Below are positions 13,986-58,727 of a DNA stretch of 64,000 nt, in pieces. The position numbers were made by a program, and so were the translations under genes. The stretch comes from Candidatus Enterousia sp. (GTDB taxonomy: Bacteria; Pseudomonadota; Alphaproteobacteria; Rs-D84). The notes under the pieces are model-generated. The model ran no database searches and was not told the DNA's origin. It saw only the letters and a program-made list of their open reading frames with translations. Location: NCBI GenBank assembly GCA_045614665.1, contig JAZLDI010000013.1, positions 6,642-70,641 on the forward strand, given 5' to 3'. The number at the start of each line of letters is the position of its first letter. Position 1 is the stretch's first letter.

Positions 13986-14002
13986 CCACAAAGGGGGGCG
14001 AT

Positions 14003-20685: not shown

Positions 20686-21603
20686 TTATTTTCTTAATTT
20701 TTTATTCAGTTTCGGAACGTGCTTTAATATCGCGGTATCTTCGATATCGTTCATATCGTGCTTATCAAAATCGGCACGCTGAAAAGTATTTTCTGCAAAC
20801 GTCTGTCCGTGCAAAACATCACCACGTGATTTGCGCCGCTGGTATTCCGCCCACGATTTACAGTAATAGTGATTGGTACGAATCACATTCTTGCTTGGGT
20901 AAATTGTTTTTGATGCACAGACACCAACGTGAACAAACGCGTCAAAAATCAGGCGCGGGTTAACAATAGATTTTCTGTGCCAAATTTTTCGCGCAGATTT
21001 AGTATAACTTTCAATAACCAGGCCACTTGGTTTTTCTATGTGTCCGTTTGAACCAAAGAATAACCACGGTGTCGAAACCTGGCCAACAGATTTTGGTAGC
21101 GATCGCAGATAGTCTGCGATATTGCCATGTTTGATTGGTAAAATAAATTCATCTAAATCTACAACTGCCAACCATGTTGTATCGAATTTATGTGTGTCGA
21201 TACAGTGTTTATATGCGGCCAGCTGTTGTCTTTGACCGGGCCAGTATTTGTATTCAACAAATCCAGAATCAATATATGGTTTCAGGATTTCCATCGTACT
21301 GTCATCGCTTTCATTATCATAAATATATATTTTATCAACGCCCAGCAAAGAATAGTATTCCAGCCATTCTGGTAAATATGCAGACTCGTTCTTAATAATT
21401 GCCAGCACTGACAAGAAATGTTTCTGGTGTGGGTGTGATTTATCGATGTGTTTCATCTGGCGTGCTTGCTTTAAAAACGCCCGCCATCCTTCTGGATAAT
21501 CTAATGCACTTGTAATTTTATGGCGCCACGAACGAACCGGCACAAAGGTTGAAATCAAGCGTTTGATTGTTTTCTTGTGTTTTTGATAAAAAGACATCGC
21601 CAC
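20686..21603 (-). CDS. Glycosyltransferase (GT2/GT92-like, Glyco_tranf_2_4 type)
   Basis: 'LSVLAIIKNESAYLPEWLEYYSLLGVDKIYIYDNESDDST' and 'VVDLDEF' (DxD-like). Confidence 0.65.
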   Translation of the reverse strand: MAMSFYQKHKKTIKRLISTFVPVRSWRHKITSALDYPEGWRAFLKQARQMKHIDKSHPHQKHFLSVLAIIKNESAYLPEWLEYYSLLGVDKIYIYDNESDDSTMEILKPYIDSGFVEYKYWPGQRQQLAAYKHCIDTHKFDTTWLAVVDLDEFILPIKHGNIADYLRSLPKSVGQVSTPWLFFGSNGHIEKPSGLVIESYTKSARKIWHRKSIVNPRLIFDAFVHVGVCASKTIYPSKNVIRTNHYYCKSWAEYQRRKSRGDVLHGQTFAENTFQRADFDKHDMNDIEDTAILKHVPKLNKKLRK

Positions 21604-35191: not shown

Positions 35192-35219
35192 AAATACCCG
35201 CCATTTGGCGGGATTTTTT
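35190..35219. terminator. Bidirectional intrinsic terminator
   Basis: 'AAAAATACCCGCC-ATTT-GGCGGGATTTTTT'. Confidence 0.75.
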
Positions 35220-36378
35220 ATGCGTATCTGCCGGCAACGTGGCCACTGGCCCATGCCCAGTGCAGGTTGAAACCACCCAAATCACCCGATATATCCAATG
35301 CTTCGCCCACTAAAAACAGTCCCGGGCATAATTTTGATTCCATTGTCTTGGACGAGATTTGATCGGTTGATACGCCGCCGCGAACGATTTCCGCACTTTG
35401 CATATTGTGTAATTTTATATCCTGTGATTGAATTTGTGTTTTATTAATATGGTCGGCAATTGCGCGAATTTCCGCGTCCCGCCAATCTGCGATATTTCGC
35501 ATATCGTTGTTTGAAAAATATTTGGCAATACGTACCGGCAAATATTCAGATAATACGGTTGCTATATTACGTTTCCCGTTTATTTGTTTTGCGTTTCTAA
35601 GTGCGCTAAAAATATCCACGCCCGGGCACAAATTGATTGTTAAACCATTCGATAAGTCACGAACACTGGCACGATAAACGGCCGGTCCACCAATGCCAAA
35701 GTGCGTAAATAACATATCGTCTTGAATTTTTTCACGTCCCATCGTAATTTCGACCGGTATAGAAATACCTGCAAAATCCGCTCCAAATATCGATACCGCC
35801 ATTGCGCACAGGGCGGGGCGCACCGGTACAATTTTGTGTCCGAATGATTTTGCTATTTTGTATCCTGTGTCTGATACCCCCAACGTTCCAAAAGACGTCC
35901 CGCCCGTTGCAATAATCAAAGAATCTGCGCAAAATTTGGCACCATTTGCGATAACGATAAATTGATTGTCGTCCCGAGTTGCCGATTCCACGGTATGATT
36001 ATATTTTATATCCGCCCCCATTGCATCATGAATCAGCGCATCGACAACCATGGCCGCGCCATCGACACAGAAATATCGACCGGGTTCTTTCTCATAAAGT
36101 CTGATTTTGTGTTTTTCACACCATTGCAAGATGTCTGTCGGTCTAACACGACTTAATGCGCCACGCACAAAATTTGGATTTTCACCAAAGTATCGCGTGA
36201 CCCCAACGGCTGTATTCGTAATATTGCATTTTCCGCCACCGGATGCGGCCACCTTGCGCGCAGGTGCGGCGCCCATATCCAGCACCAATACCCGTCGACC
36301 ACGTGCGACCAGTTCTCCCGCCGCTGTCAATCCAGCTGCCCCCGCACCAATAATGATTACGTCATAATGTTTCATCAC
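35218..36378 (-). CDS. HI0933/YhiN-family FAD-dependent oxidoreductase (BaiN-like)
   Basis: 'YDVIIIGAGAAGL', 'KVAASGGGKCNITN', 'LFLVGEALDISGDLGGFNLHWAWASG'. Confidence 0.8.
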   Translation of the reverse strand: MMKHYDVIIIGAGAAGLTAAGELVARGRRVLVLDMGAAPARKVAASGGGKCNITNTAVGVTRYFGENPNFVRGALSRVRPTDILQWCEKHKIRLYEKEPGRYFCVDGAAMVVDALIHDAMGADIKYNHTVESATRDDNQFIVIANGAKFCADSLIIATGGTSFGTLGVSDTGYKIAKSFGHKIVPVRPALCAMAVSIFGADFAGISIPVEITMGREKIQDDMLFTHFGIGGPAVYRASVRDLSNGLTINLCPGVDIFSALRNAKQINGKRNIATVLSEYLPVRIAKYFSNNDMRNIADWRDAEIRAIADHINKTQIQSQDIKLHNMQSAEIVRGGVSTDQISSKTMESKLCPGLFLVGEALDISGDLGGFNLHWAWASGHVAGRYA

Positions 36379-44180: not shown

Positions 44181-44210
44181 AAATAAATGCGCCACATGGC
44201 GCATTTATTT
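44181..44210 (+). terminator. Intrinsic terminator after tig
   Basis: 'AAATGCGCC-ACAT-GGCGCATTTATTT'. Confidence 0.6.
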
Positions 44211-44231
44211 ATAAAGGAAAGGACGAACAAA

Positions 44232-45197
44232 ATGAAAGCATACCTGGATATATTGGGGGATATTTATAAAAACTGTACCGATGTGCGTCAAAATCGCACC
44301 GGCACACCCGACATCGGCATCGGACACGGCGCCACATTTGTGCACGATATGGCCGACGGGTTCCCATTAATTACAACTAAAAAGATGGGATTGAAAAACA
44401 TTGCCACAGAACTGGAATTCTTTATTCGTGGCATAACGGACAAAAAATGGTTAACCGATCGCAAATGTAAAATATGGAATGAATGGGCCAATCCAGTCAA
44501 GGTAGAACAGGCTTATAAAATCAAGACCGGCATGTTAGAGCAGGGCGGACCATTAACCCCCGCACAGAAACAAATTGTTCGCAATTCTATAATGGATTCT
44601 GAACGCGATCTGGGGCCAATATATGGATTCCAGTGGCGACATTTTGGTGGCGAATATCAATGGGACACCGCCAGAATCGAACACAACCCAACGGATAACT
44701 TTAACCCGCAAAAACCCGGCACAGACCAGGTTGCAAACGCAATCGACAAATTAAAGAATAATCCAAACGATCGTCGCATACTGGTATCGGCATGGAATCC
44801 CACAGACTTTTATCAGATGGCACTACCACCATGTCACGTAATGCACCAATTAATTGCACGTGACGGCAAATTAAACCTTATCTGGACTCAGCGTTCATGC
44901 GACATGTTCCTTGGGATACCTTATAATATCGCCAGTTATGCACTGTTGCTGCTGTTATACGCCAAAGAAGCAGGCATGACCCCCGGCATATTAAAAGGCG
45001 AATTCCATGACGCACATATTTATACAAATCATCTGGACCAGGTTCGGGAACAACTGTCACGCACACCGTACAAATTACCAACCGTTGAAATACCCGACGA
45101 CAACTGGAACGGCATGTTAAATTGGTCGGCCGACGGCGGATTCAAATTAAAAGATTATGTATGCCATGAAAAATTAACCGGTGCGGTTGCCCGATAA
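44232..45197 (+). CDS. thyA: Thymidylate synthase ThyA (long form, 321 aa, with insertions)
   Basis: Start at the internal ATG 44232, after 'AAAGGAAAGGA'. 'RTGT', 'GPIYGFQWRHFG', 'DRRILVSAWNP', 'LPPCHVMHQL', 'QRSCDMFLGIPYNIASYALL'. Confidence 0.9.
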   Translation: MKAYLDILGDIYKNCTDVRQNRTGTPDIGIGHGATFVHDMADGFPLITTKKMGLKNIATELEFFIRGITDKKWLTDRKCKIWNEWANPVKVEQAYKIKTGMLEQGGPLTPAQKQIVRNSIMDSERDLGPIYGFQWRHFGGEYQWDTARIEHNPTDNFNPQKPGTDQVANAIDKLKNNPNDRRILVSAWNPTDFYQMALPPCHVMHQLIARDGKLNLIWTQRSCDMFLGIPYNIASYALLLLLYAKEAGMTPGILKGEFHDAHIYTNHLDQVREQLSRTPYKLPTVEIPDDNWNGMLNWSADGGFKLKDYVCHEKLTGAVAR

Positions 45198-45227
45198 AAA
45201 TCCTCGCCAGTTGGCGGGATTTTTTTA
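45196..45227. terminator. Bidirectional intrinsic terminator
   Basis: 'AAAAATCCTCGCC-AGTT-GGCGGGATTTTTTT'. Confidence 0.7.
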
Positions 45228-45761
45228 TCTTTTTTTCTGAAAGGTTTCTTTTATGTTGTGCCACATAATCTTATGTTGTGGTAATTTACTTATAGAATCC
45301 GCGCGTTGTACCTCGGCACGAACAAATTCCATATGTTCCGCGGCCTGTTGCATATCCTGTTTCGTGGCCAAATATGCGGAATCGGCATCCATATAATCTT
45401 GAATAACTTTATTTTTAACAGAATCTGCCTTGACAGCTAACTCGTCACAAACCCTTTTGCGGTGGGCTATACGTGTTTCTGTGTTACCGCCTTTTGGCAT
45501 ACGTACATCATAGCTGGCCTCTTTCAAACGTTTGTATTCTGGATTGTTATATCCCAAATGTTGTGCCTCAATTAATGCGCTAGAATAGGCACTACGATGT
45601 TGTGCTTCTGCTCTAACATATTCGCTTTCAGCCTTTTTTAGGTCATATTCATTATATTCTGGCCAGTTATACCCCAGTGTTGCACTGGTTGCCATTAGCA
45701 TAGCAATACCCAAAATATATACAAAATCTCTGACGGTTGTGTTTGTTTGTTTTTCAGACAT
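45225..45761 (-). CDS. Hypothetical N-terminally anchored protein (178 aa)
   Basis: One TM 'FVYILGIAMLMATSATL'. Internal duplication 'LGYN(W/N)PEY'. Confidence 0.45.
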   Translation of the reverse strand: MSEKQTNTTVRDFVYILGIAMLMATSATLGYNWPEYNEYDLKKAESEYVRAEAQHRSAYSSALIEAQHLGYNNPEYKRLKEASYDVRMPKGGNTETRIAHRKRVCDELAVKADSVKNKVIQDYMDADSAYLATKQDMQQAAEHMEFVRAEVQRADSISKLPQHKIMWHNIKETFQKKR

Positions 45762-45893: not shown

Positions 45894-45920
45894 GAAAAAA
45901 ATCCCCCATTCGGGGGATTA
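45894..45920 (-). terminator. Intrinsic terminator of the giant gene
   Basis: Minus-strand read 'ATCCCCC-GAAT-GGGGGATTTTTTT', 5 nt after the stop codon. Confidence 0.75.
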
Positions 45921-45924: not shown

Positions 45925-48900
45925 TTACCAAGCCATATAACCATCGTTACATTTGCGTTCGCACTTCTTTGTGGTTGAATTCCACTTCATTGTTCCTGTT
46001 TCGTCTTCATATTCTTCGCCAACTGGACAAATTGGAACGCATTCATTATTTTCAAGGTTATACAATTCTCCCTGATACATACATGCCGCAATCGTACATC
46101 CTTCGATATAACTGCTTGCTGCATCTTGCCCCAGTACGCTCTTGGCATTTCGACAACGTCCACACTGTTTGTTTGGCTCATCTGATTCGTATGAGTCATT
46201 TGTATAACCAGGTTCGCACGACGTTGCGATACATTCGCCCCACGTGCCACGATTTTCATCCCATTCACGTGTTCCTGTACCATGTTCAACCGAGCATACC
46301 TCTACATCAGGGACACAGGTATTTGATGAAACATGATAACCATCAACGCATTCTGTAATCTTACAGATTCCAAAAGCGCCCAACTTGCTGTCCCAGGTTT
46401 GACTTGCAGCCAGGGCATTCGGTGCCGTGCAAGTTTTTACATCATCTGCACACTGGTCACCTTCTGGGTGGAAGCCTGTATGACATTTTGCCACCAGACA
46501 GTTGCCATTTGGTTTGTATGCGGTTGCATTAGCGCGATCGCATCTCTTGCAACGACCATCAATCAATTCATAGTCTGGGTTACAAGAAGTCTCGACACAA
46601 GTTTCGTTGCCCTTAATCGTCTGAATTTCACATGGATTACCTGTTTCAGACTTCCCCTTGTATGTACAAACATTGTCATACTGTACGGTATCACTGTCAC
46701 GTATCGCCATACCGCCCAAGATTTCATAGTCTTCACATGTTGTATAGCACTGTTCAATCTTGGTTGAACCCGCCCCAGATAACTTATGTGTTCCACCTGT
46801 TAATTCATCACAGGTCATTGGTGTGCTATCTGGTGTGCCATCTAGATCAATGTCCGATCCAGACAACGCATCGCAAACACTGTTTTCTGGGCACAATTCA
46901 CATTGTGATTTATCGCCCGACAGATAGTATTTCGTATCACATACCTGAATTTCACAAGTGTCTGTCATAGTTGCTCCCTGATAGTCGCGACCAACCATTG
47001 TTGTGACATTGGCCGGGGCATCACATTCGCCAAAGCATTGTCCCGTGTATGTCGAGCCCGCATCTGATTCGGGATAACGCCCATCAAACAGCGTACTACA
47101 CAGTTGCGGTTTAGCATTTGCAACCCCATCAAAGCCCGTACGTGTTGATTCATCACAAACACTGCCGGCTGGACAAATATCACATTGATTGTTATTGATG
47201 TAATATTTTTCGTCACACGTATCCAACATACACGCCGTACAATCGGACGAATAATCTTCTGCATTCGTATTGTACCCACAGGTCTTAATTCCGCTACCGT
47301 GCGAAACAGAGCAGGGCATTTCTGTCATAAAGCACGCGGATGCATCACTGCTGGTGTCTGATTCAGTTTGTCCTGCACGCCCGTCAAATGTTGCGCAACC
47401 CTGACGTGCGGTTGGGTGTCCTTCGTTGCCTGCATCTGCAACTGGACCAAAGAAGCCATATCCAACCTTGGTACAATCTGTGTCACCAATTGCATTCCAA
47501 TAATATCCTGCATCACACTTCTGGAACATGCGGGCACGACATTCAGTGTATCCCTTGTTCTCGGGCGAATAGATACAGTACTGGAATCCAGAACCGTGAT
47601 CCGACGTGAATGGATTTTCTGCCTTGAAGCACGATGTGGATTCAGCAGCGTTGTCGACGTTTGTGTCACCGCCGTCCGGACATGGTGTTCTGTTCAAACT
47701 ACCCGGTTCACTGTACGCATCATATCCGACCGCCGTACAATCTGTTGCCGCCGCATTTTCACGATAATACCCACCTTGACACGTTGTGATATACTTGTCA
47801 CGACAATCTGTTGCATATTTTGCACTGCCGTCTGCATTGTCAGATGTGTAATTACATACCTGGGTTCCTGCACCGTATGTCGCATTATATTCAACTGTCT
47901 TATAGCAGTCACCAGCATCGTCCGCGGTTGTCAGTGATCCTGTCAATCCTTCTGCTGGACATTCATAACGTTTCAGGTCGTCTGCGCCACTGTAATGGTT
48001 TATACCAACCTCAATACAGTCTATACCAGATACGTGATAGTATCCAGCTACACATTTCTTGACCGAATGATCGCGACACGATGCGTCGTATTCCTTTGTG
48101 TCATCATCATAGTTACACGTTTGTGTCCCGCTGGCCTTGCCGGTTGTGGATGTGTATGCCAACCCTTGCTTATAGCATACACCGCTGTTGGTCGCGCTTG
48201 TGCCACCGGCCGAGATGCCGCCGTCTGGGCAAATTTCGTGACCGCCAACAACGCCCGTGTCTGTTGGGTATGTTCCGCCCGGACACCAGTGATTGGCCGC
48301 ACAAACCACACAATCTCCGCCCCGGCCTGGGTAGTAATAACCCGCCTCACAGACAGTGTCGCCTTCGGACCAAACAACATTTGCGGTTGTGTCTTCCGTT
48401 GTCACACGCAGGGCCGAATTTGTATTTTGCAACATCCCTGCGGCATCAATAACCATAACGTCGTCGACGCTGTAACCCGCAAAGTTGTATCCAGATTTGC
48501 CGGGCAGGGCACTTGTATCAATTGTTGTTAATGCCTTGCTTGCCGCCAGATCTTCAAACCAACCAACCGTGTATTTCAAATATACTGGTTTTTGTGTTGC
48601 ATTTTCTGTGGCGTCACTTGCAACCAATTCAACTTTGAACACATCTGGTTCCCAAATCGCATACAGCGTTGTATCGGTACCATTCGCCGAGATGTTTTCA
48701 GATGTTGCAACATTCGCGACATAGCACGCGCCCGAGCCGTTCGCGTTGGTGCACCATTTATTAGCAGATACATATCCTGCACGTGCCAGTCCATCCGTTG
48801 CCGGTAACTTACAGACGCCACTGTCAAATGTGCATTCTATATATGCTGTGGCATCGCCTGTCCCCTGGTTCTTATCCAGTGTGACCGTATATTTATTCGC

Positions 48901-51900
48901 AACACATTGCGGATTTGTACCATTTTTCGCCGTATAACCCGCATTACACGTAATTGTATAAGAACAGGCTTCATATTCTCTCTTCGTTGTGTTGTATGGT
49001 GCGTTGGCCTCGTCTGGTGTTACGGTCTTGCTGTTTGCGATATCCGCGGTTGTCAAGGAACAAGCACTGTAACAATCTGCCTCTGTTGCACGTGGCGCAT
49101 TAGATCCGATCCCGTCATTCGCTGCGCCGGTTTCCCCTAGACATGCGTGTGCTGTCATACTTTCTGTGTCTTCGGTTCCGTTTTCTACAACCGGTGCAGG
49201 ACTGTAATATCCGTTTGTTACCGGCGTACATGCATTACCAACACCACTGTAATAATATCCCGCATCACATGTCAGCGCAATAGAATCACAGTTTGTTGTA
49301 TATATAGCATTATTGCCACTGCCACTTGTATACCAACAATCCCATTTTGCGGTACCAAAGTTGAATGTCATATCTCCGCCATCAGTTGTAACCTTGCGAC
49401 AGTCTGATATGCTATCTGCACCAGCGGCGGTTGTGGCACCATTCGCTGGACATGTTTCAATACAACCAGTCGAACCTTCGTTAATTTCACCATTGCCCGG
49501 ACAATATTGACCCAATTCACAGCGGGTACGTACGCCGTTGTTGTAATAATAACCGGCCTCGCATGCAACCATATTCTGGTCCCAAATTGCGTACAGAGTA
49601 ATTTCGCCACCATCCGACAGCAGGTTCTTGATACTACCGTTTGCAACAATTGTTTTTCCCTTGCCATCTTTCTGGGTGTTCCAAACACTGAATGTCTTGT
49701 TCGGCATTTCAATTGTATCAGCGGCTGCGCATTCCATATCATACACGCATGTAACATCCGCAACATTCAGGCTTCCTGCATCTGTCGGATCAAAATGCAC
49801 CGTAAACGTTGTTGGTGTCCAGTTTGCTGTAACGGTTATGTGACCCGTTGTACCCGCAACAATTTCATTGTTTACAACCTTGTTGCCAGTCCAACCATCA
49901 AAGACGTAGCCCGTTTTTACAGGATTCTTTAATTCAATCGGTGTATCAGATATTGTATAAGTTTCCGGATTCTCGGCATTATTTGTGCCTCCATCCAATT
50001 CATATGTAATCACATACGAATCAGAGGCCCAGTTCGCGGTCAGAACCATATCGCCGATTGAACCATTTATAATCTGTGTAACCGTATTGCCATTTGCGTC
50101 GGTCCACTTGCTGAAAGTAAAACCTGTTTTTTCTGGTTTCTTTAAAACGATAGTGTTTGTTTCAACAGTGTACTTATCTGGGTTAGATTCACCGGTCTTA
50201 TAAGTCCCGCCATTAAGATTGTATGTAATCTTATAGGTAACAGGTGTCCACTTTGCCCAGAATTCTTTATCTCCGGTTGTGCCCGCTGTGATCTCGGTAA
50301 CACTTGTGTTGAAGTTGCTATCGCTGAACCACCCACCAAAATCATACCCACGTTTTGTTGGGTTGGATAGCACAAATGCATCTTCAATAGTATACTTTTC
50401 TGGGTTCGAAGCACCCGCATAATAGCCACCATCCAAGTTGTATTTAATAGTATATGGATTTGGTGTCCACTGCGCAAACAAAACCACAACACCCCCAGCA
50501 TCAGTTGTCAACTTATTAACAAATTGTTCATCTGCATATGAATTGCCTGTACCATCCTCTTTTGTGTTCCAACCGGTGAATGTATACCCATCACGTACAA
50601 ATTTATTTGAATATAAACTTTGACCATCACCAAATACAAACTCTTGTGTATTCATCACAACTTCGCCACCCATATAATTGTCGTGATATTCAACTGTATA
50701 GGTATTAGGATTACAGGTAATATGTTCATAATATTTAGAATACCCTCCAGTATATGTAAAACATAAATACCCAAATTTTTCAAAGCATTCATCAGTGTAT
50801 GCAGCCGTATATCCTCCCTCACAGACAACGCTCATTTGGCAATTTGTGTATGGAGCAATCGTTGACTCAACATTTTCTCCAAGGAATACTTTCATACCAG
50901 CAACGGTAGCATTTTTTAGAGTACATGTTTTTGCATTTTCGGGACATACATTAGGACATACATATGTTACACCAGATGTAGAAGAGCGACAGCCAATGTA
51001 TCCTTCAGGTGCAGATGGAACATAAGCAACAGGACCATATTGCCCACCAGTAGAGTACTGATATGTCCCATCCCCAACGGTAGAGCAGCTGACACATTGG
51101 TCATCTTGACGGAAATAATTGGCGTTACACTGAACGGCATATCCACCTTCAAAGCCACGCTGTATAGGACAAGTCCATGTGTCTTCTTCTGCCGAAACAG
51201 ACACGCATTCTGAGGCACCGTAATACCATTTGCAAGGTGTTGTTGCAGTTGTATCATAAATACAACGTTGGTACGCAACCGTATCTCCACAGTCTGTAGT
51301 CCACAGATAGTTTGCAAAATCTATCGTATGCTCCGGTGCGGTACAATCCATTGTTGTCTCATAATAACACTGCTTTTCTGCGGTGTCATCACCGTCGGTT
51401 GCGCAAATATTATATGTGCCCTGATATTCGGCGCCCAGCGATGAACACGCCGTTGTACAACTTGTACATACGCCATTGCTTGGGTATGTGCCACTTGCGC
51501 AACCACAGGCACCGTCTTCTGTGCTGTTGCACGCATTCCATTGCGCGATAAAGGTCATATTCGTCGTACATGTGTTTGCTGCAACCGAAGTAACCGTTGC
51601 GCCCGTGGAGTCTTTCCAGCCTGCAAATGTATATCCTGGGCGTGCAATGTTATCGGCTGTCGGCAGGTCAAAAGAATCCATGACTTGGCACGATGTTTTA
51701 TATTGCCCGCTCCATACTGTGTCACCTGGGGTTACATATGTGATTGTCTTTGCGCCCTCGGCAACATATTCCGCAGTAAATGTTTTACCAGTTGTATAAG
51801 TCCAGACAAAATCTGTGCCCGCGGTGTGAATTGTTGTTCCGTCATTCCAGTGGCTGAAATCATATCCATCTGGCTCGGTGCAAGTATTTGTCGCCGGTGC

Positions 51901-54900
51901 AAAGCCTGTATTATATATTGCCGTTGCGTTTGCCGGTGCGGTACCCGTTCCGTCACCACAATTGTATGTAACGGTATAGGACTTTGGAGTACATACACAG
52001 GACAAGCCGGTGCATTTTGGTGTTTCATATCCCGTGGCACATTCCGCACTTGCCACACAGGTGTTATTAGAAACACTGACCGAACATGTGTTCACACCAT
52101 CTCCTTTGGCGCAATCGGCACATTTTGTCCATTTGGCCGTGAATGACATTTCAGATACACACGTGCCCGCCGCAATAGACGTTGTCTTTATACCAGTTGC
52201 GTCGTTGTACCATCCGTCAAATGTATGGCCGTCGCGTGTGGTTGTAGGCAATGTGATGACGGTTGATTCAACGTTACATTCTGTGTCGCTTACCGTTGTA
52301 CCACCATTTTCATTAAATGTAACCTTGTTCATGCCACCAACTGTCCATTGGGCATATAGTGTCGTTGCCTTTGCAATATCCCAGGTGCGTGCTGATTGAG
52401 CCGCCGCGGTATAGTACTGTGTGCCACCCGTCTTGGCATCAAACCAACCCGTGAATACGTATCCGGCCTTTGTTGGGGCGGTTGTGCTGATTGCCGGCAT
52501 AGTGCTGTCATATGTTGCTAAAACGTCTGCGGTCTGACCGCCTGTACCGCCATTGGCATCAAATGACACTGTGTACTGGTTCGCCGTCTTACAGGCATAG
52601 TATGTACTGTTTTTCGGTGTTGTAAACGTACTTGTCTTAGCTGTACAAGACTGGGATGTTCCCCAACCACCTGTAAATGTGTATCCGGTTTGTGTCAGGA
52701 TGGACGAATCTCCAAAATAACATTCCACGTCCTGGTAACAGGTCACAGATGCGCCAAGCGAACCGGCCCCGCCATTTTTATCCAGCGTTATCACGCGATA
52801 ACAGTCGGATGATGAATCGTGGTCTGCCGTTGTTGTGCCGGTAATGGTATACCCCGTTTCACAATCATCTACGCAACTTGTTGCAGTCGACCCGTTTGTG
52901 GTCTGGTATTTACCAGTTCCACATACAATGCACGACAGGGTTGCGCCATTCACATATGCACCGGCCTTGGCGGTAACTGACGCAACGGTTGGCGTGCATA
53001 CGGTCTCGTTTTCGATGCCATAAAAGTCTTTATAATTGCAAGACGCCCATGTAGCACTGTGACAGTTTGCAGGGATATTACCCTTGGTAACTATTACGGT
53101 ATTATAACAATCCTCTTTTGCATCGGACCCCAGTTCACTGTCTGGATATTCCGTCGGACAGGTCTCTGTGATTCCCTGATTAACAGAGGTGCTATATGTA
53201 TAGTCTCCACCACCACAGTAACTATCTTCTGGACATGATTCGCACTGTGTTTTTAACATTGGCAAATATTTACCTGGATTACACGTGTATGTATTGGCTT
53301 TCCACTGTGCGGTCAAAGTTGTATTTCCAACCGTTGTATATGTATATTCTTTGTTCGCCTTTGGATAATTGCCATTCCAGCCCGTAAATGTATATCCTGT
53401 ACGGCCACACATGGTTCCTGGCTGGGTTGTGAATGTACCGTCAAATATCACCGACTGTGTATTGATAGATGGTGTTTGAATATTGCCACCGTTACAATTG
53501 TAAGTGATGGTATATTCTTTTGGGGTTAATTTACCATAAACCGTGATGTCCCCTGTGCCAGATGTCTTGGTAATTCTGTTTTTGTATGCGGCATCACTAA
53601 ACCAACCACCAAACGTATAACCGGCCTTGGATGCGTCTGTGAATGTCACAGGCGATTCGACCGTGTATGTCTTTGCGTTGCTGTGTGTCGCACCATCAGC
53701 AATTTCATATGTGATATCATAACTAATCGCATCGCCCCAAATTGCATATAATGCAACGCTACCATTATTAGTGGTCGTCAGGTTAGAAACATTTTCTTTG
53801 TCGGAATATTTTACATCGCCGTCGCTGCTGAATGCCCATCCCTGGAAATTCAAGCCGTCTTTTGTAAACTTGTTCGCGTTCAGTTGCTGCGCCACATCAT
53901 ATGTAAATGACTGACTGCTCATCGTGCCCGATCCGCCATTCGCATTAAACGTAACTGTGTATTTATTTGCTGTTGCGCGACATGTGCTTACGGCATTATT
54001 GGATGGCTCACATGTTGGGCTATTATATCCTGCCACCGCAATTGCTGTCGCGGTACCACAAATACCCAATGGAGCACTTGGTGTACAAGATGCAACACCC
54101 GTCCCTTTGTCACAAGTACATTCTGCGCCCCAGACTGCGTACAAATTAACCTTGGCGCCGTCTACACTGCTCAGGTTTAATACACTTTGTTTGTTGGTGT
54201 ATTTGGCACTGCTTGCGCCACTGGTCTCGGCCCAACCCAAGAACTGTTTCGCGTCATTTGTGAATCCATTTGTGGACAAGGTGCCCGACTTATCATATGT
54301 ATGCGTGCTGGTTGCGGGTGTCCCAGTTCCACCATTCGCATTATACACAATCGTATATGTAATCGGCGAACAGCTTGGGTTATAAGCACCGGAATTTTTG
54401 ATATCCTTGTACCCATTTGCACAGTTGGTTGTATAAGAGCACTGGTTGTTTACAATATTTAACGAGCAGGTTGCCCCCGTTCCTGCCGCACACGCTGTAC
54501 AGGGGCTCCATACTGCATATAGTGTCTTTTCACCGCTTGTGATGATATTTTTGATGCTTGCGCCCGGTGCGTATTCGGCCACCGTTGCATCTGTTGTCGA
54601 TGCCCAGCCCTGGAAAGTGCTGTTAGTCTTCAACATTGTGCCCTGAGTTGTTGTCAAACAGGTCCCATTATAAGAACATGTCTGCGAACTGACTGTTGGT
54701 TCGCCCGAGGTTGCGTCGTTTGTATCATATTTAATGGTTATCGAATTTGCAGAACACGCATAATTATAAGATGTCGACCCCGCTGTACCTGTGTATGTCC
54801 CGCTGGTCCCATAACCATCGTTGCAAGTAACTGTACATTTTGGTGCGTTCGTCGTCGTATTTACCGGTTTCGCGGTTCCATTATCGGCACTGCATGTTGG

Positions 54901-56103
54901 TGTTACCCAAACTGCGTACACGCTTGTAGACGCTTTGAGTGTAAAAGAAGTGTTGCCACTTGTGGCGGTATTGGATTCCGACCATCCTTTGAATATCTTT
55001 GTGCCATTGCTAAGCCCGCAAGATGATGCGTTCCACGATGGTAATGTGCACGCCTTATTATAGTAACACGTTGCCGAACCATCAGATGTGCTAGATGCGC
55101 CACCACAGGTGCCAGCCCCGCCATTTTTATTTAATGTAATTGTGAAATAACAGTCATTTTCTGTTTTTGCGCCTGTTGCACTGGTACCTGCCGGACATAT
55201 TGTCAGACCCGCATCAACACCGCTGTTTGACCCGGCTACGCCCTTGCAATAATTGCCGGCCGTACACTGTGCACATTTCGCTGTATCCGCATCCCAATAT
55301 GTACCTGCTCCACAATCGTATGTATACCCCGCCCAAATCGCATAAAGTTTTACATCGGCTGTCGGTGTATATTCGCCAGTACTGCCACTTGTGGCGGTGC
55401 TTGATGTGGCCCAGCCCTTAAAGGTGTACCCGATGCGTGTAGTGGTTGGCATTGTTACGGGCACTGCCGTCCATTGTGCATATAATTTTAAATCCTTTGC
55501 GGATGCTTTGATTCGTGCTATACCGCCGTTTGTTATATATCCGTTTGCGTTAATAACTTGCGTGCCACCTGTTGCCGCCGTGAAATACCCGTTGAATATA
55601 TATTCTGATGTTTGTGACGTAGTGTCAAGCGTCCCACCAACTGCATCGTAAGTAACAGTGTAACTTTTTTCTGGCAAGTCAACCGGATTCGAGGTTGTTG
55701 TCATAACATTCTTACGTGCCGCGTCCAAATACACGTTCGTTTCATAGCGACCATAAATTGTTACTGTGCCGTGGGTTGTCGCATCGTCTTCCAGTGAAAT
55801 CGTTGTCGCGATTGGTGTACATGCCGTTGTTGTCGTAGTAGTTGCCCCCGTCGTGGTGCCACCAACACTGTGCCCGGTTGAACACGTACAGTAAGTCGCC
55901 TTATTCCCATTGACCGTATAGGAATTATCTGGACACGCCGTACAGGCATTGCCCGTTCCGGCTCCATTCAAATAATAGCCTGCGTTACAGGATGTATATT
56001 GTTTTATATCATCACAGGTATAACCATCTGCAAACGAATTCGTTGCGAAAATGACACCCATAAATAATACAAAAAAACCCAGGAAACAGCGTATTTTTCC
56101 CAT
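45925..56103 (-). CDS. Giant secreted mosaic repeat protein (3,392 aa): ~20 Listeria-Bacteroides (Flg_new / InlB B-repeat-like) repeats plus cysteine-rich CxxC modules
   Basis: Uninterrupted 10,179-nt ORF with RBS 'GAGAGGAAG'. Signal peptide 'MGKIRCFLGFFVLFMGVIFATNSFA'. Repeats such as 'YTITYNLNGGT...GYTFxGW...LYAxW'. Cys modules such as 'CxxGxY...CxxCPxxxYC'. Confidence 0.85.
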   Translation of the reverse strand: MGKIRCFLGFFVLFMGVIFATNSFADGYTCDDIKQYTSCNAGYYLNGAGTGNACTACPDNSYTVNGNKATYCTCSTGHSVGGTTTGATTTTTTACTPIATTISLEDDATTHGTVTIYGRYETNVYLDAARKNVMTTTSNPVDLPEKSYTVTYDAVGGTLDTTSQTSEYIFNGYFTAATGGTQVINANGYITNGGIARIKASAKDLKLYAQWTAVPVTMPTTTRIGYTFKGWATSSTATSGSTGEYTPTADVKLYAIWAGYTYDCGAGTYWDADTAKCAQCTAGNYCKGVAGSNSGVDAGLTICPAGTSATGAKTENDCYFTITLNKNGGAGTCGGASSTSDGSATCYYNKACTLPSWNASSCGLSNGTKIFKGWSESNTATSGNTSFTLKASTSVYAVWVTPTCSADNGTAKPVNTTTNAPKCTVTCNDGYGTSGTYTGTAGSTSYNYACSANSITIKYDTNDATSGEPTVSSQTCSYNGTCLTTTQGTMLKTNSTFQGWASTTDATVAEYAPGASIKNIITSGEKTLYAVWSPCTACAAGTGATCSLNIVNNQCSYTTNCANGYKDIKNSGAYNPSCSPITYTIVYNANGGTGTPATSTHTYDKSGTLSTNGFTNDAKQFLGWAETSGASSAKYTNKQSVLNLSSVDGAKVNLYAVWGAECTCDKGTGVASCTPSAPLGICGTATAIAVAGYNSPTCEPSNNAVSTCRATANKYTVTFNANGGSGTMSSQSFTYDVAQQLNANKFTKDGLNFQGWAFSSDGDVKYSDKENVSNLTTTNNGSVALYAIWGDAISYDITYEIADGATHSNAKTYTVESPVTFTDASKAGYTFGGWFSDAAYKNRITKTSGTGDITVYGKLTPKEYTITYNCNGGNIQTPSINTQSVIFDGTFTTQPGTMCGRTGYTFTGWNGNYPKANKEYTYTTVGNTTLTAQWKANTYTCNPGKYLPMLKTQCESCPEDSYCGGGDYTYSTSVNQGITETCPTEYPDSELGSDAKEDCYNTVIVTKGNIPANCHSATWASCNYKDFYGIENETVCTPTVASVTAKAGAYVNGATLSCIVCGTGKYQTTNGSTATSCVDDCETGYTITGTTTADHDSSSDCYRVITLDKNGGAGSLGASVTCYQDVECYFGDSSILTQTGYTFTGGWGTSQSCTAKTSTFTTPKNSTYYACKTANQYTVSFDANGGTGGQTADVLATYDSTMPAISTTAPTKAGYVFTGWFDAKTGGTQYYTAAAQSARTWDIAKATTLYAQWTVGGMNKVTFNENGGTTVSDTECNVESTVITLPTTTRDGHTFDGWYNDATGIKTTSIAAGTCVSEMSFTAKWTKCADCAKGDGVNTCSVSVSNNTCVASAECATGYETPKCTGLSCVCTPKSYTVTYNCGDGTGTAPANATAIYNTGFAPATNTCTEPDGYDFSHWNDGTTIHTAGTDFVWTYTTGKTFTAEYVAEGAKTITYVTPGDTVWSGQYKTSCQVMDSFDLPTADNIARPGYTFAGWKDSTGATVTSVAANTCTTNMTFIAQWNACNSTEDGACGCASGTYPSNGVCTSCTTACSSLGAEYQGTYNICATDGDDTAEKQCYYETTMDCTAPEHTIDFANYLWTTDCGDTVAYQRCIYDTTATTPCKWYYGASECVSVSAEEDTWTCPIQRGFEGGYAVQCNANYFRQDDQCVSCSTVGDGTYQYSTGGQYGPVAYVPSAPEGYIGCRSSTSGVTYVCPNVCPENAKTCTLKNATVAGMKVFLGENVESTIAPYTNCQMSVVCEGGYTAAYTDECFEKFGYLCFTYTGGYSKYYEHITCNPNTYTVEYHDNYMGGEVVMNTQEFVFGDGQSLYSNKFVRDGYTFTGWNTKEDGTGNSYADEQFVNKLTTDAGGVVVLFAQWTPNPYTIKYNLDGGYYAGASNPEKYTIEDAFVLSNPTKRGYDFGGWFSDSNFNTSVTEITAGTTGDKEFWAKWTPVTYKITYNLNGGTYKTGESNPDKYTVETNTIVLKKPEKTGFTFSKWTDANGNTVTQIINGSIGDMVLTANWASDSYVITYELDGGTNNAENPETYTISDTPIELKNPVKTGYVFDGWTGNKVVNNEIVAGTTGHITVTANWTPTTFTVHFDPTDAGSLNVADVTCVYDMECAAADTIEMPNKTFSVWNTQKDGKGKTIVANGSIKNLLSDGGEITLYAIWDQNMVACEAGYYYNNGVRTRCELGQYCPGNGEINEGSTGCIETCPANGATTAAGADSISDCRKVTTDGGDMTFNFGTAKWDCWYTSGSGNNAIYTTNCDSIALTCDAGYYYSGVGNACTPVTNGYYSPAPVVENGTEDTESMTAHACLGETGAANDGIGSNAPRATEADCYSACSLTTADIANSKTVTPDEANAPYNTTKREYEACSYTITCNAGYTAKNGTNPQCVANKYTVTLDKNQGTGDATAYIECTFDSGVCKLPATDGLARAGYVSANKWCTNANGSGACYVANVATSENISANGTDTTLYAIWEPDVFKVELVASDATENATQKPVYLKYTVGWFEDLAASKALTTIDTSALPGKSGYNFAGYSVDDVMVIDAAGMLQNTNSALRVTTEDTTANVVWSEGDTVCEAGYYYPGRGGDCVVCAANHWCPGGTYPTDTGVVGGHEICPDGGISAGGTSATNSGVCYKQGLAYTSTTGKASGTQTCNYDDDTKEYDASCRDHSVKKCVAGYYHVSGIDCIEVGINHYSGADDLKRYECPAEGLTGSLTTADDAGDCYKTVEYNATYGAGTQVCNYTSDNADGSAKYATDCRDKYITTCQGGYYRENAAATDCTAVGYDAYSEPGSLNRTPCPDGGDTNVDNAAESTSCFKAENPFTSDHGSGFQYCIYSPENKGYTECRARMFQKCDAGYYWNAIGDTDCTKVGYGFFGPVADAGNEGHPTARQGCATFDGRAGQTESDTSSDASACFMTEMPCSVSHGSGIKTCGYNTNAEDYSSDCTACMLDTCDEKYYINNNQCDICPAGSVCDESTRTGFDGVANAKPQLCSTLFDGRYPESDAGSTYTGQCFGECDAPANVTTMVGRDYQGATMTDTCEIQVCDTKYYLSGDKSQCELCPENSVCDALSGSDIDLDGTPDSTPMTCDELTGGTHKLSGAGSTKIEQCYTTCEDYEILGGMAIRDSDTVQYDNVCTYKGKSETGNPCEIQTIKGNETCVETSCNPDYELIDGRCKRCDRANATAYKPNGNCLVAKCHTGFHPEGDQCADDVKTCTAPNALAASQTWDSKLGAFGICKITECVDGYHVSSNTCVPDVEVCSVEHGTGTREWDENRGTWGECIATSCEPGYTNDSYESDEPNKQCGRCRNAKSVLGQDAASSYIEGCTIAACMYQGELYNLENNECVPICPVGEEYEDETGTMKWNSTTKKCERKCNDGYMAW
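47200..48135 (-). repeat. Three to four tandem ~90-aa cysteine-rich modules inside the giant ORF
   Basis: Recurrent pattern 'G(S/A)G-x-(Q/K)-x-C-x-Y...C(R)...C-x-(A/G)GYY...C...VG...C(P)...C(Y/F)K'. Boundaries mapped on DNA ('GTQTCNYDDD' at about 48,110; 'IKTCGYNTN' at about 47,270). Confidence 0.65.
49785..50730 (-). repeat. Block of four back-to-back canonical Flg_new-type repeats inside the giant ORF
   Basis: Checked on DNA. 'NTYTVEYHDNY' maps to about 50,700, 'PNPYTIKYNLDGG' to about 50,450, and 'TTFTVHFDP' to about 49,800. Confidence 0.75.
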
Positions 56104-56240
56104 ATCTTCCTCTCTTTTGCTTTTTATGGTAGTAAAAATACGCTATATCGCGCAAGGGGAAATATTAAAAATCAATTAAAAAAATATATTTGACACATTT
56201 TTGATACTTGACTTTTTATAAAAAGCTATTTTTTTGCTTT

Positions 56241-56274: not shown

Positions 56275-56350
56275 TGGTGGGTTAGGTAGGACTTGAACCC
56301 ACGACCAAAGCGTTATGAGCGCTCCGCTCTAACCACTGAGCTACTAACCC
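56275..56350 (-). tRNA. tRNA with CAU anticodon (elongator Met or lysidine-modified Ile2; not an initiator)
   Basis: Reverse complement 'GGGTTAG-TA-GCTCAGTGGTTAGAGC-G-GAGCG-CTCATAA-CGCTT-TGGTC-GTGGG-TTCAAGT-CCTAC-CTAACCC-A-CCA'. The 1:72 pair is G-C. Confidence 0.88.
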
Positions 56351-56434: not shown

Positions 56435-57718
56435 ATGGGGCTGATTTCGCCGATTTTAAATGATGTTCAGATATCTGCGTTTAATGCGATTGAACGCACA
56501 AATTCTAATATTCTCATCCTGGGGCAGGCTGGAACTGGCAAATCTACATTTGTAAATTATTTAAAGTCCGCATCAAAAAAACGCATTGTGTGTGCGTGTC
56601 CGACGGCGGTGTCGGCATTAAATATCGGTGGACAAACGATACATTCTCTGTTTCAGATTCAACCACGTGATTTTATTATGCCCGAATTGTTAAAATTAAA
56701 GGCCAAGCCCAGAAATATTCTAAACGCTACGGATGTGTTGATTATTGATGAAATTTCGATGGTCGCACCGGATTTATTGGACGCAATTGATATCTTGGCC
56801 CGCATGGCACGCCATAACAACGCGCCCTTTGGCGGAATTCAGGTCGTAGCCATTGGGGATTTGTTCCAGTTGCCCCCAGTTATAACGCGCGATGCAATGT
56901 CTTACTATGAATCCACATACGAGCATCCAAATGCTTATTTCTTTGACAGTAACGTTTATAAACGTGCCAATTTTATTCGATTCAGTTTTGATATGGTATA
57001 TCGTCAAAACGATGGGGCGCTATTAGAAAATCTGACTCGATTACGTAACCGCGATATTGATGCATTAAATTTCTTTAATAGCTGCAAGATAGAAGATGTT
57101 GAGCGTCGCGCAAATGCGGTTTTAATAACACCGTTTCGTGACACGGCCGAGCGGATAAATTCATCGCGCCTGGCCCAGATTAATGCGCCGGAAATAATGT
57201 ATGCCGGGACATTGACCGGAACGTTTTCGGAACGCGATGTCCCCGCGCCATTGAATCTTATTTTAAAGGTTGGGGCATTGGTAATTTTTGTAAAAAATGG
57301 TGACAAATGGCACAACGGTTCGATGGGGATTGTGCGGGCAATGTCCACACGTGATATAACCGTACAGTTATTGTCTGATAATCGTGAAATTGTATTGGTA
57401 AAACCTGAAAAGTGGGAAAAGATAGAATATTCCCGTGATGAAAACGATAGAATTGTCGAAAACGAAGTAGGGGGATATAAACAATTTCCGCTGAATCTGG
57501 GGTATGCAATGACCATACACAAGGCCCAGGGAAAAACACTGGATGCGGTTGTTGTAGATATGTCGCGTGGCGCATTCGCCCACGGTCAGACTTATGTTGC
57601 GTTGTCCCGCACACGTGCGGCCACCGATATGCATATTTCGTCGCCCCTGCGACCACGCGATGTTATTTTTGATGATCGTGTACTTGAATTTGTGGGGATC
57701 GATATGCCACACGCATAA
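56435..57718 (+). CDS. Pif1-family (RecD-like, SF1B) DNA helicase
   Basis: Walker A 'GQAGTGKST', 'TIHSLF', Walker B 'LIIDEISMV', Pif1 signature 'PFGGIQVVAIGDLFQLPPV', 'GYAMTIHKAQGKTLD', 'YVALSRTR'. Confidence 0.85.
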   Translation: MGLISPILNDVQISAFNAIERTNSNILILGQAGTGKSTFVNYLKSASKKRIVCACPTAVSALNIGGQTIHSLFQIQPRDFIMPELLKLKAKPRNILNATDVLIIDEISMVAPDLLDAIDILARMARHNNAPFGGIQVVAIGDLFQLPPVITRDAMSYYESTYEHPNAYFFDSNVYKRANFIRFSFDMVYRQNDGALLENLTRLRNRDIDALNFFNSCKIEDVERRANAVLITPFRDTAERINSSRLAQINAPEIMYAGTLTGTFSERDVPAPLNLILKVGALVIFVKNGDKWHNGSMGIVRAMSTRDITVQLLSDNREIVLVKPEKWEKIEYSRDENDRIVENEVGGYKQFPLNLGYAMTIHKAQGKTLDAVVVDMSRGAFAHGQTYVALSRTRAATDMHISSPLRPRDVIFDDRVLEFVGIDMPHA

Positions 57719-58727
57719 AATCTTGTGCATTTTGTGTCAAATCGGAAAACTTAACGCCACGACCTGTAATCAGATTGGTTGGTATTGGTTTACGCTCAAT
57801 CGCCGCCAATACAGATTTAACAACAGCATTTCGTTCGGCGGCGAACAAGATTTTACCCGATTTGCTGATTTTATATGGGCTTTTTTCACCCAGGTCAAAT
57901 GTTGAATGTTCGTCCGTTTCGGCATCGGGCATTTCGTTCCGAACGTTTGGAATAATCAATGTGCGCGTATTTTCTATGTACATTGGGTTAACCTTTTCGG
58001 CATTTTCCAGAAAAACCGCATCTATCATATTGTTATTGCGCAGGACCGCATCGTGTATCGACATAAAAGATACGCTGGTTGTCTTCAATTGCGATAATGG
58101 CGCCAACGGTTCGTGATTTATCGTAATAATATTCTTCAAGAATAAATCGATTTCCGCCTGCGTATAACCCGCGTTTAGCATCGCCTGTTGCAGCATACAC
58201 TGCAACATCAACATTGTTGATGTGCCTTGGCAATGCGTAAAGAAAATCGCATTGCGCGCATATTGGATGGCGGTGTTTATATCGTGACGACGGCCGTATT
58301 GATTGACGATACGTGGCTTAAAGATATGTTCAAACAGAATTTGTACGAAAACAGGTTTTGTTTCAAGTTTATCAACGGTTGCGATTTGCTGGGCACGCTT
58401 TGTGTTATCTGCGTCCAGTTCTATAACATTGCGTCCCGCCGCGCGAAACAGTTCCGCCCGATCGTGTGATGGCACACGTGAACCAAACGCATAGAACGTC
58501 GAATATAAATCAATGCCTTTGATATCGTTTTGTCTTAAAATCTCGCGAATATATCGGCCATAGAATCGTGCTTTGTATTCGTCTGTTGTTTCTTCGCCAC
58601 CCAGTGCAAATATGGCCAGTTTACCAACCGGTATTTGTGATGGGTTGCGAATAATCTCGTTGTCATTTACCGATTTAGGAACAATTTTTATAATCTGCGC
58701 GCTGCTGCGCTGAAAAGACTGATTCAT
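57663..58727 (-). CDS. Hypothetical protein, paralog A (putative Cys-nucleophile alpha/beta-hydrolase-like)
   Basis: Collinear by eye with 58741..59763: 'LGGEETTDE', 'IFFTHCQGT', 'ITINHEPLAPL', 'SFMSIHDAV', 'DEHSTFD'. The C-terminus ends 'HQK'. Confidence 0.6.
   Translation of the reverse strand: MNQSFQRSSAQIIKIVPKSVNDNEIIRNPSQIPVGKLAIFALGGEETTDEYKARFYGRYIREILRQNDIKGIDLYSTFYAFGSRVPSHDRAELFRAAGRNVIELDADNTKRAQQIATVDKLETKPVFVQILFEHIFKPRIVNQYGRRHDINTAIQYARNAIFFTHCQGTSTMLMLQCMLQQAMLNAGYTQAEIDLFLKNIITINHEPLAPLSQLKTTSVSFMSIHDAVLRNNNMIDAVFLENAEKVNPMYIENTRTLIIPNVRNEMPDAETDEHSTFDLGEKSPYKISKSGKILFAAERNAVVKSVLAAIERKPIPTNLITGRGVKFSDLTQNAQDFMRVAYRSPQIQVHDHQK

Follow-up and report, generated by a model that had tools for sequence, protein, structure and literature searches.

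The 64,000-nucleotide stretch of DNA analyzed here (hereafter the window) comes from a Candidatus Enterousia genome (contig JAZLDI010000013.1, positions 6,642 to 70,641) and carries a single gene of 10.2 kb (45925..56103, minus strand) that encodes a protein of 3,392 amino acids. Our analyses suggest that this giant protein is probably the principal representative of a family, specific to the Candidatus Enterousia lineage, of giant fibrillar surface proteins that are Sec-exported and rich in disulfides, and that it serves as an adhesin whose C-terminal handle is new; it is the leading candidate for the means by which Enterousia attaches to its partner. Two features define the family, a Cys-rich domain of 220 aa at the C-terminal end and a conserved N-terminus, and its distribution is restricted, as far as detected, to Enterousia-like gut bacteria. 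The protein has one constant end; its middle and its other end vary. A giant surface repeat protein in a host-associated bacterium is a known kind of thing, but this combination of features is not: a minimal-genome diderm, a Sec signal with ~92 predicted disulfides, Ephrin-like super-repeats of eukaryotic type, a new terminal domain, and no known secretion or anchoring system.

Enterousia belongs to the order Rs-D84, has genomes of 0.75–1.0 Mb, is without respiration and without amino acid, nucleotide, or lipid biosynthesis, is presumed to live in obligate dependence on a partner, and is prevalent in the guts of ruminants, cervids, birds, mice, and humans (PMC12306168); giant proteins are not discussed in that paper. 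An exported family of 1,300- to 4,400-aa proteins, several per genome and each taking up ~1% of it, is an obvious molecular handle on the partner and lifestyle of these bacteria. It offers antigens for localization, baits for the partner or its receptor and, in the C-terminal domain, a marker for cataloguing, and the ~1,200 aa of the giant protein that lack Pfam coverage, the C-terminal domain included, allow new domain families to be defined. The family also poses two puzzles, namely how a 350-kDa protein with ~92 predicted disulfides passes the outer membrane of a minimal diderm, and how so many disulfides are made without a respiratory chain.

The giant gene is intact and selectively maintained

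The gene is a single open frame of 3,392 codons and a stop, occupying 15.9% of the window. A preliminary description of the locus, made by a model from the DNA letters alone, had reported a 3,392-aa open reading frame (ORF) that fills 16% of the window and has its own Shine–Dalgarno site, Sec signal, and terminator, all of which were reproduced (Table 1). In the signal peptide (MGKIRCFLGFFVLFMGVIFATNSFA, followed by DG), a basic n-region precedes a hydrophobic core of 15 residues and a small-x-small cleavage site; no other segment of the protein is hydrophobic (Kyte–Doolittle >1.6), and LepB is encoded within the window.

The preliminary description had also drawn attention to assembly collapse, chimerism, and frameshifts, and no sign of these was found. 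That the gene is an assembly artifact (a repeat collapse or chimera) or a decaying pseudogene is the least probable of all the explanations we considered. The genome is of metagenome type, the only record of the protein comes from one NCBI contig of 102,623 bp (its exact sequence is already in public data, unnamed), and related genes are frequently interrupted by the ends of contigs (SUUO01, L018/L057) or split (L002). However, the gene contains no tandem DNA repeats (Tandem Repeats Finder), and its dispersed repeats extend over ≤45 nt at 69–75% identity, so the protein repeats are old and nothing in the DNA would drive an assembly collapse. Moreover, the locus closest to the window, L003 (RGIG5353, an independent metagenome-assembled genome, or MAG, from sheep colon), carries a colinear ortholog (residues 1–3392 against 1–3374, 83% identity) with the same 19 repeat units. 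Four further independent partial sequences (P0001 and P0208–P0210) share the 90% cluster of the giant protein and align with its C-terminal part; P0210 aligns from aa 1272, at 78% identity overall because of the swapped cassette described below. Relatives are intact in the long-read chromosomes OZ007020.1 and OZ246409.1.

Pairwise comparison of the window gene with the L003 ortholog by the Nei–Gojobori method, which yields the synonymous rate dS, the nonsynonymous rate dN, and their ratio ω, gave a gene-wide dS of 0.54, against 0.53–0.55 for the flanking cysS, tig, and tmk genes and an unnamed 182-aa ORF, and a gene-wide ω of 0.18, against 0.01–0.05 for flanking genes. A dS like that of the flanks and an ω of 0.18, with no stop in 10.2 kb, indicate vertical descent under purifying selection, and thus neither a pseudogene nor an island. 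An origin as a genomic island at the adjoining tRNA-Met was considered and is ruled out by the conserved order of helicase, tRNA-Met, and giant gene together with the dS equal to that of the flanks. The G+C content of the gene (46–48%, compared with 42–44%, in a window of ~43%) fits its Thr/Gly/Ala-rich composition, the protein being 14.7% Thr. The giant gene is therefore real, intact, and selectively maintained.

In one relative, L002 (ENA ERZ28593846 scaffold_1369; 3690-14227 and 1-1206), the homolog occupies two ORFs (2,104 and 1,408 aa) with a 4-nt overlap, a split that may be genuine or may reflect a frameshift or a sequencing error. Another paralog, of 2,210 aa and with faint Ephrin_rec_like and Flg_new matches, lies 2.5 kb upstream of it, indicating that the family is multicopy; several genomes carry at least two members.

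Domain anatomy, the C-terminal-domain family, and the swapped cassette

The giant protein matches Flg_new (Pfam PF09479) with E=7.6e-103 and 337.1 bits (cut-off 27) in 13 stretches, and NCBIfam TIGR02543 with E=4.1e-54 and 180.7 bits (cut-off 20.95). A hidden Markov model (HMM) iterated on the protein's own units resolved 19 strong and one or two degenerate Flg_new units between aa 148 and 2578, which bears out the ~20 Listeria–Bacteroides repeats of the preliminary description. Their interleaving with Cys-rich modules was likewise borne out: the units are separated either by linkers of 4–6 aa or by ~50-aa Cys modules with 4–8 Cys, and larger Cys-rich blocks occupy aa 258–319, 935–1102, 1523–1801, and 2175–2404. 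Of the 185 Cys, one lies in the signal peptide and 184 in the mature chain (5.5% Cys), and the number per inter-unit module is almost always even (4, 6, 6, 6, 14, 8, 26, and 16). The Ephrin_rec_like family (PF07699), which the preliminary description had proposed searching for alongside Flg_new, proved borderline, at 14.5–23.3 bits against a gathering cut-off of 23.1. Three longer tiles scored 14.5, 18.5, and 19.6 bits over the full profile, the module at aa 2181–2278 scanned alone reached 23.3 bits, and 4 of the 10 modules matched at E≤1; the family was not among the whole-protein Pfam matches at E≤0.01.

The Cys super-repeats of the C-terminal third follow the pattern CxAGYY..C..(C)..G.Y..CP..G..DCY..G.G..C.Y..Y..C, the first half of which is of Ephrin_rec_like type. 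Searched against the PDB, the super-repeat profile found ELAPOR1 at E=0.005. In an AlphaFold2 (AF2) model of aa 2579–2965, built from a shallow alignment (predicted local distance difference test score, pLDDT, 76), each unit is a hairpin module joined to a three-stranded sheet, and the best Foldseek matches of this model were the mastigoneme protein MST1 (8wa2, E=2e-4, prob 0.99) and ELAPOR1, with template-modeling scores (TM-scores) ≤0.2, as expected for rods.

A motif scan of the whole protein found no LPXTG motif, repeats-in-toxin (RTX) nonapeptide (zero GGxGxDxUx), or lipobox. In Pfam and NCBIfam scans no autotransporter, type IX secretion system (T9SS), PEP-CTERM, GlyGly-CTERM, or other sorting model was matched; Pfam showed no leucine-rich repeat (LRR) family, and NCBIfam returned List_Bact_rpt and weak internalin matches and nothing else. 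The preliminary description had noted the absence of an autotransporter β-domain, an RTX or type I secretion system (T1SS) signal, an LPXTG motif, and a lipobox. These scans agree, and its statement that there is no anchor or signal stands for known ones, but it had missed the strongly conserved C-terminal domain that defines the family, as well as the conserved position of the gene in the chromosome (helicase, tRNA-Met, giant gene).

Homologs were sought with the C-terminal 892 aa first and then with a profile of the C-terminal domain, and the family was counted by running HMMER with that profile against 1.84 billion representatives. This search recovered 661 representative clusters at E≤1e-3, of which 255 reached E≤1e-30, with the window protein as the top match (410 bits). 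Among the best 150 representatives, which have a median length of 1,678 aa (maximum 4,444 aa) and a median Cys content of 6.8%, 142 contain the full-length domain, and in 141 of these 142 it lies ≤25 aa from the C-terminus. Flg_new units are absent from 33 of the 150, and the window protein holds the most (19). The length of family genes ranges from 1,300 to >3,500 aa between species. In L077 and L080, the passenger that precedes the C-terminal domain is unrelated and consists of ~24-aa LRR-like repeats. A secreted 557-aa protein (signal peptide MKRVLCFLFSVFLSWTAYAAQA) made of these repeats (LFsGixGxPAxxMFxxTFxxCxGLTGxIP, with no Pfam match even at E≤0.1) is encoded in the window at 22709–24382 (minus strand); it shares 46% identity with the passenger regions of L080 and L077 and does not have the C-terminal domain.

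The modules of the C-terminal domain follow the pattern CxxxCxxGY...C...C...W...C, and an AF2 model of the C-terminal 243 aa (56 sequences) consists entirely of β-hairpins at a pLDDT of 94.6. In the PDB the domain has no sequence-profile match and no significant Foldseek match, and in BFVD it has one weak Foldseek match (E=4.8e-4, TM-score 0.22); its nearest Foldseek matches are epidermal growth factor (EGF) arrays (Pvs25), fibronectin type I (FnI) modules, R-spondin furin repeats, and Ephrin-like proteins of giant viruses. A role for the terminal GY(M/T)xW resembling that of a β-signal was considered and is unlikely, since P0005 and L065 run 17 aa beyond the W. At the other end of the protein, the signal peptide and first mature residues are conserved in most complete members (MGKxRxFLGxF...GNAFA, followed by AGY), BLASTP of aa 1–147 matches 55 of 125 large representatives, and some members with the C-terminal domain have differing N-termini (L055, L064, L077, L080). 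Relatives are annotated as "hypothetical protein" or "InlB B-repeat-containing protein," and the literature, searched by taxon names, yielded no description of the family, the C-terminal domain, or the cassette.

A scan with the C-terminal-domain profile of one genome per GTDB species found 79 loci, all of them in gut MAGs labeled Candidatus Enterousia, "Alphaproteobacteria bacterium," or "Rickettsiales bacterium," from hosts that include sheep, goat, deer, chicken, human, mouse, and termite; two of the 79 sit in chromosomes of 958,618 and 716,531 bp. Family members of Enterousia-type architecture are also carried by L065 (OZ246409.1, the 716,531-bp chromosome), labeled "uncultured Muribaculaceae bacterium," and by L031 (CALXAO010000146.1), labeled "uncultured Clostridia bacterium." The L065 gene repeats the N-terminal stretch of P0005, the locus of which is L001, and the taxonomic labels of L065 and L031 are probably wrong.

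Computed by segment, the comparison with L003 shows a gradient along the protein. Over aa 1–1500, ω is 0.12–0.33, and aa 1–300 are among the fastest-evolving parts (55–85% identity, ω 0.24–0.33), whereas ω falls to 0.03–0.10 over aa 2100–3392 and to 0.03–0.05 in the C-terminal domain; the flanking proteins of L003 are 95–99% identical to those of the window. Between these parts, a cassette at aa ~1571–1875 drops to 5–45% identity, with indels, between flanks of 85–99%, and its dN is 0.34–0.86 with saturated dS. The same break is seen against P0210. The cassette contains a unique 26-Cys region and one Flg_new unit, and the Cys-rich tile aa 1523–1801 has no Pfam match and found nothing in a homolog search. 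The saturated dS and the sharp drop in identity indicate replacement by a divergent allele rather than divergence in place, which points to allele replacement by recombination. As judged from sequence, the cassette is no more than a candidate for the specificity or binding region.

The fibrillar adhesin model and its alternatives

Fibrillar adhesins are defined by a large size, a rod-like stalk of repeated domains, a recognizable ligand-binding domain, and a cell-surface anchor, Flg_new is treated as one of their stalk domains, and the class is, like the giant protein, Thr-enriched (PMC9210967). The giant protein has 3,392 aa and a stalk region of 19–20 Flg_new units and 8 Cys super-repeats; for the anchor, no known motif or domain was found, and the C-terminal domain is the candidate by position and conservation. 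We propose that the chain crosses via Sec and would be cut by LepB after SFA, and that the 184 mature Cys pair within modules, as their even counts suggest, to give a protease-resistant rod. The ~20 Flg_new (InlB B-repeat) units, the small Cys-knot linkers, and the eight ~90-aa super-repeats would together make up a long stalk. The C-terminal domain, with the conserved C-terminal third, may act as the constant handle, recognized by the envelope for surface attachment and/or passage through the outer membrane. This role is suggested by its strict C-terminal position, its passenger independence, its housekeeping-like purifying selection, and its family-wide conservation; a sorting or anchor function is argued mainly from the passenger independence and the strictly terminal location, which do not prove it. 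The fast-evolving N-terminal two thirds, chiefly the cassette, would then be the distal specificity part that touches a partner cell, a host surface, or mucus. Glycosylation of the fiber is conceivable, given its Thr content, its Thr/Gly-rich linkers, and a glycosyltransferase gene in the window. The role of host- or cell-interaction factor that the preliminary description had assigned to the protein is still inferential, but it is now better grounded by the partner dependence of the genus (PMC12306168), the lineage-wide family, and the strain-variable cassette.

Several observations weigh against this model. No recognizable adhesive domain was found in the protein by Pfam or NCBIfam, and the case for an anchor role of the C-terminal domain consists of its position and conservation. 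The AF2 model of that domain is an EGF-like hairpin array no different from the stalk modules, and a few proteins contain parts of the domain as tandem repeats in their interior. Conservation across the family also extends to the first ~20 mature residues, so that the polarity of the protein could be the reverse. Concerted evolution of the C-terminal domain, which would suggest a receptor specific to each genome, was not seen among paralogs within a genome, which are 64–70% identical in this domain, no higher than between genomes, although this test is uninformative. The protein has no anchor motif, lipidation site, or β-barrel, the 64-kb window has no recognizable secretion-system gene (several of its ORFs are without a family match), and no secretion gene recurrently adjoins the 81 related loci; no outer-membrane export route can be named from the protein, the window, or the neighbor data. 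Respiratory chains are the usual electron sink for DsbB. Disulfide formation in an anaerobe reported to lack such chains (PMC12306168) is unexplained.

Among the alternatives, the one with most in its favor, although we judge it unlikely, is that the protein forms a protective coat or a free filament, that is, a shed or self-assembled, disulfide-laddered, protease-resistant layer or hair in which the C-terminal domain mediates self-assembly. Parallels would be the mastigonemes of algae or the Cys-rich coats that anaerobic gut protists bear. A content of 5.5% Cys with even counts per module would suit such a layer, as would the lack of an adhesive domain or anchor in the Pfam, NCBIfam, and motif scans, the conserved terminal domain could be a polymerization interface, and the best structural matches are the filament-forming MST1 (PMC10602792) and Cys-rich ectodomains. 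However, the low Foldseek TM-scores place the likeness in the type of module and not in the assembly, a swapped ~300-aa cassette and fast evolution confined to one part are hard to explain by pure structure, and the range of lengths between species is typical of stalked adhesins. Less likely again is a reversed polarity, in which the N-terminal motif is an envelope retention module and the C-terminal domain a shared distal tip that binds a ligand. RTX adhesins of diderms are anchored by their N-terminus, family-wide conservation includes the signal peptide and the first ~20 residues of the mature chain, and a conserved tip would fit a conserved receptor; but aa 1–300 are among the fastest-evolving parts, the N-terminus differs in some members with the C-terminal domain, and that domain sits on unrelated passengers and is always terminal, as in sorting and anchor domains.

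It is highly improbable, nearly as much so as the assembly artifact or pseudogene discussed above, that the protein is a polymorphic toxin or a contact-dependent effector whose payload is the C-terminal domain. Such a protein would be giant and secreted and would have a distinct C-terminal domain, as here, and a small ORF lies directly downstream (45225–45761). Against it, the C-terminal domain is conserved and not polymorphic and is a Cys-rich hairpin array without an enzyme-like fold or family match, the downstream ORF lacks conservation, its place being taken by other genes in L003 and L001, and Pfam and NCBIfam found no pre-toxin or Rhs/CdiA-type domain. We therefore favor the fibrillar adhesin. 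Beyond it lies a bolder proposal, which we put forward tentatively and regard as possible but doubtful: the C-terminal domain and the conserved N-terminal motif may mark an undescribed export or attachment route by which a minimal-genome diderm brings very large, already disulfide-bonded proteins to its surface and that operates without recognizable type I, II, V, or IX secretion components, and the displayed proteins may form an organelle for docking onto a partner cell and living off it, one that uses modules otherwise typical of eukaryotic cell-surface receptors.

Genomic neighborhood and comparison with known systems

The features of the giant gene and of its upstream border are collected in Table 1.

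Table 1. Features of the giant gene and the adjoining tRNA gene, in the direction of transcription
Feature	Position in window	Strand	Basis or remark
tRNA-Met(CAT), directly upstream of giant gene	56275..56350	-	Own terminator 56269-56246; locus context
Shine–Dalgarno-like GAGAGG	56109..56114	-	6 nt upstream of ATG, read directly from sequence
Sec-type (signal peptidase I) signal peptide, aa 1-25, MGKIRCFLGFFVLFMGVIFATNSFA, then DG	56029..56103	-	n/h/c layout
N-terminal conserved Cys module, aa 26-100, then Thr/Gly-rich linker	55804..56028	-	Motif GYxC(D/P)xxKxYTSCNxGYY
Flg_new units 1-2 (aa 148-257; second is a half unit)	55333..55662	-	Custom HMM E=1.5e-15, 6.4e-13; PF09479
Ephrin_rec_like-type Cys module (aa 258-319, 6 Cys)	55147..55332	-	PF07699 14.5 bits, full 48-position profile, below 23.1
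Seven Flg_new units alternating with ~50-aa Cys-knot linkers, 4-6 Cys each (aa 320-934)	53302..55146	-	Custom HMM E=1e-12 to 3e-23
Cys-rich block with Ephrin_rec_like-type modules (aa 935-1102, 14 Cys)	52798..53301	-	PF07699 18.5 bits, E=0.0017, 2 stretches
Five Flg_new units and one 50-aa Cys linker (aa 1103-1522)	51538..52797	-	Pfam, custom HMM; weak NCBIfam internalin matches here, B-repeat only
Strain-variable cassette (aa ~1571-1875): unique Cys-rich region and first Flg_new unit of tandem block	50479..51393	-	Identity drop
Five tandem Flg_new units, 4-aa linkers (aa 1802-2174)	49582..50700	-	Custom HMM E=2e-18 to 6e-26
Two ~100-aa Cys super-repeats, each Ephrin_rec_like module and β-sheet (aa 2175-2404)	48892..49581	-	PF07699, repeat register
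Two Flg_new units (aa 2405-2578)	48370..48891	-	E=5.4e-19 (aa 2405-2484); degenerate second 0.061 (aa 2516-2578)
Six ~90-100-aa Cys super-repeats (aa 2579-3172), starts aa 2585, 2684, 2775, 2863, 2963, 3055	46588..48369	-	Alignment A3
C-terminal domain (aa 3173-3392): 22 Cys, ~4.5 modules of ~45 aa, ending GYMAW	45928..46587	-	Alignments A1, A2
Intrinsic terminator: 8-bp stem (5 G-C pairs), then T-run	45900..45919	-	5 nt past stop codon

Annotation of the window upheld the Gram-negative housekeeping context, with no adjacent secretion genes, that the preliminary description had recognized. The housekeeping genes comprise those for PBP1, an outer-membrane protein (OMP) β-barrel, RNase J, Era, QueA, Tgt, DnaK, L25, iPGM, BamD, and MurJ, as well as those for RlpA, ComM, LepB, CysS, RpoD, Tmk, L13, S9, trigger factor, ThyA, and Lon. 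The order of a PIF1/RecD-like helicase gene (56435–57718, plus strand), tRNA-Met, and the giant gene recurs in L001, and a helicase gene is a neighbor in 33 loci. A gene for an HI0933-like flavoprotein neighbors the giant gene in 46 loci, in most relatives following it; in the window it lies ~10 kb away (35218–36378), which indicates a local rearrangement. Between tig and the giant gene, the window has thyA (44187–45197, plus strand) and a 178-aa ORF (45225–45761, minus strand), where L003 instead has ORFs of 149 and 159 aa, so the spot directly downstream of the giant gene is variable.

Elsewhere in the window, two paralogous ORFs of 354 and 340 aa (57663–58727 and 58741–59763, both minus strand) have no Pfam or NCBIfam match, and in 17 related loci members of their cluster lie close to the giant gene. 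The 329-aa product of an ORF at 987–1976 (minus strand) carries a signal peptide, has no Pfam match, and ends in ...LGLRFEF, like the C-terminal signature of outer-membrane β-barrels; it is a candidate lineage-specific OMP and might be a partner of the C-terminal domain of the giant protein. The window also encodes a GT92/GT2-family glycosyltransferase (20686–21603, minus strand), in a minimal genome, and a two-piece (permuted) alphaproteobacterial tmRNA (63641–63995, minus strand) with the tag peptide AANDNVRLAMAA, which helped in the taxonomic placement of the window.

With respect to known C-terminal sorting domains (the T9SS C-terminal domain, PEP-CTERM, GlyGly-CTERM, and LPXTG), the giant protein family shares a conserved module at the extreme C-terminus of unrelated secreted passengers and a Sec signal. 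In contrast to them, its terminal domain spans 220 aa with 22 Cys, has no transmembrane helix, is not a T9SS-type β-sandwich, and matches no NCBIfam or Pfam model, and no cognate sorting machinery was identified. The giant adhesins of diderms, whether RTX proteins secreted by a T1SS (LapA, SiiE, MpIBP) or autotransporter and trimeric proteins of the type V secretion system (T5SS), are likewise repetitive rods of several thousand residues that project a binding region from the outer membrane and vary in length between strains. T1SS substrates lack a Sec signal and Cys, whereas the giant protein has a Sec signal and 184 Cys, no RTX repeats, and no C-terminal T1SS signal. The window has no adjacent gene for an ATP-binding cassette (ABC) transporter, membrane fusion protein (MFP), TolC, or TpsB, and the protein has no β-barrel translocator: Pfam and NCBIfam gave no match to a translocator or to two-partner secretion (TPS), and the C-terminal 243 aa are modeled as Cys-rich hairpins.

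Proteins with the Flg_new/Listeria–Bacteroides repeat (PF09479/TIGR02543) resemble the giant protein in its 19–20 bona fide units, large size, Thr-rich and stalk-like repeats, and N-terminal signal peptide. Here, however, the repeats occur in an alphaproteobacterial diderm with a reduced genome rather than in a Firmicute or Bacteroidete, and the protein is without an LRR/internalin cap, an LPXTG or GW module, or a T9SS C-terminal domain; the class 1 internalin models scored 65 bits for internalin_H (cut-off 1050) and 47 bits for internalin_A (cut-off 1600), in the B-repeat region only. It has instead disulfide modules between the units, followed by ~1,200 aa of Cys-rich repeats. For these modules the closest counterparts are eukaryotic, namely ELAPOR1 (PDB 9vqm) and the Cys-rich tandem of Chlamydomonas MST1 (PDB 8wa2, 8tx1), a subunit of extracellular filaments whose clustered disulfides form a ladder (PMC10602792). 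The giant protein differs from both in being bacterial, in fusing the Ephrin-like module to an extra three-stranded sheet to give a ~90-aa super-repeat, and in lacking an Ig-like, polyproline, or transmembrane part, and the likeness comes with TM-scores of ≤0.2 and Pfam scores at or below the gathering cut-off. It shares with them the core motif CxxGxY...CxxC...G.YC...CP...DCY and, as predicted for the giant protein, the form of an extracellular, disulfide-laddered, elongated array.

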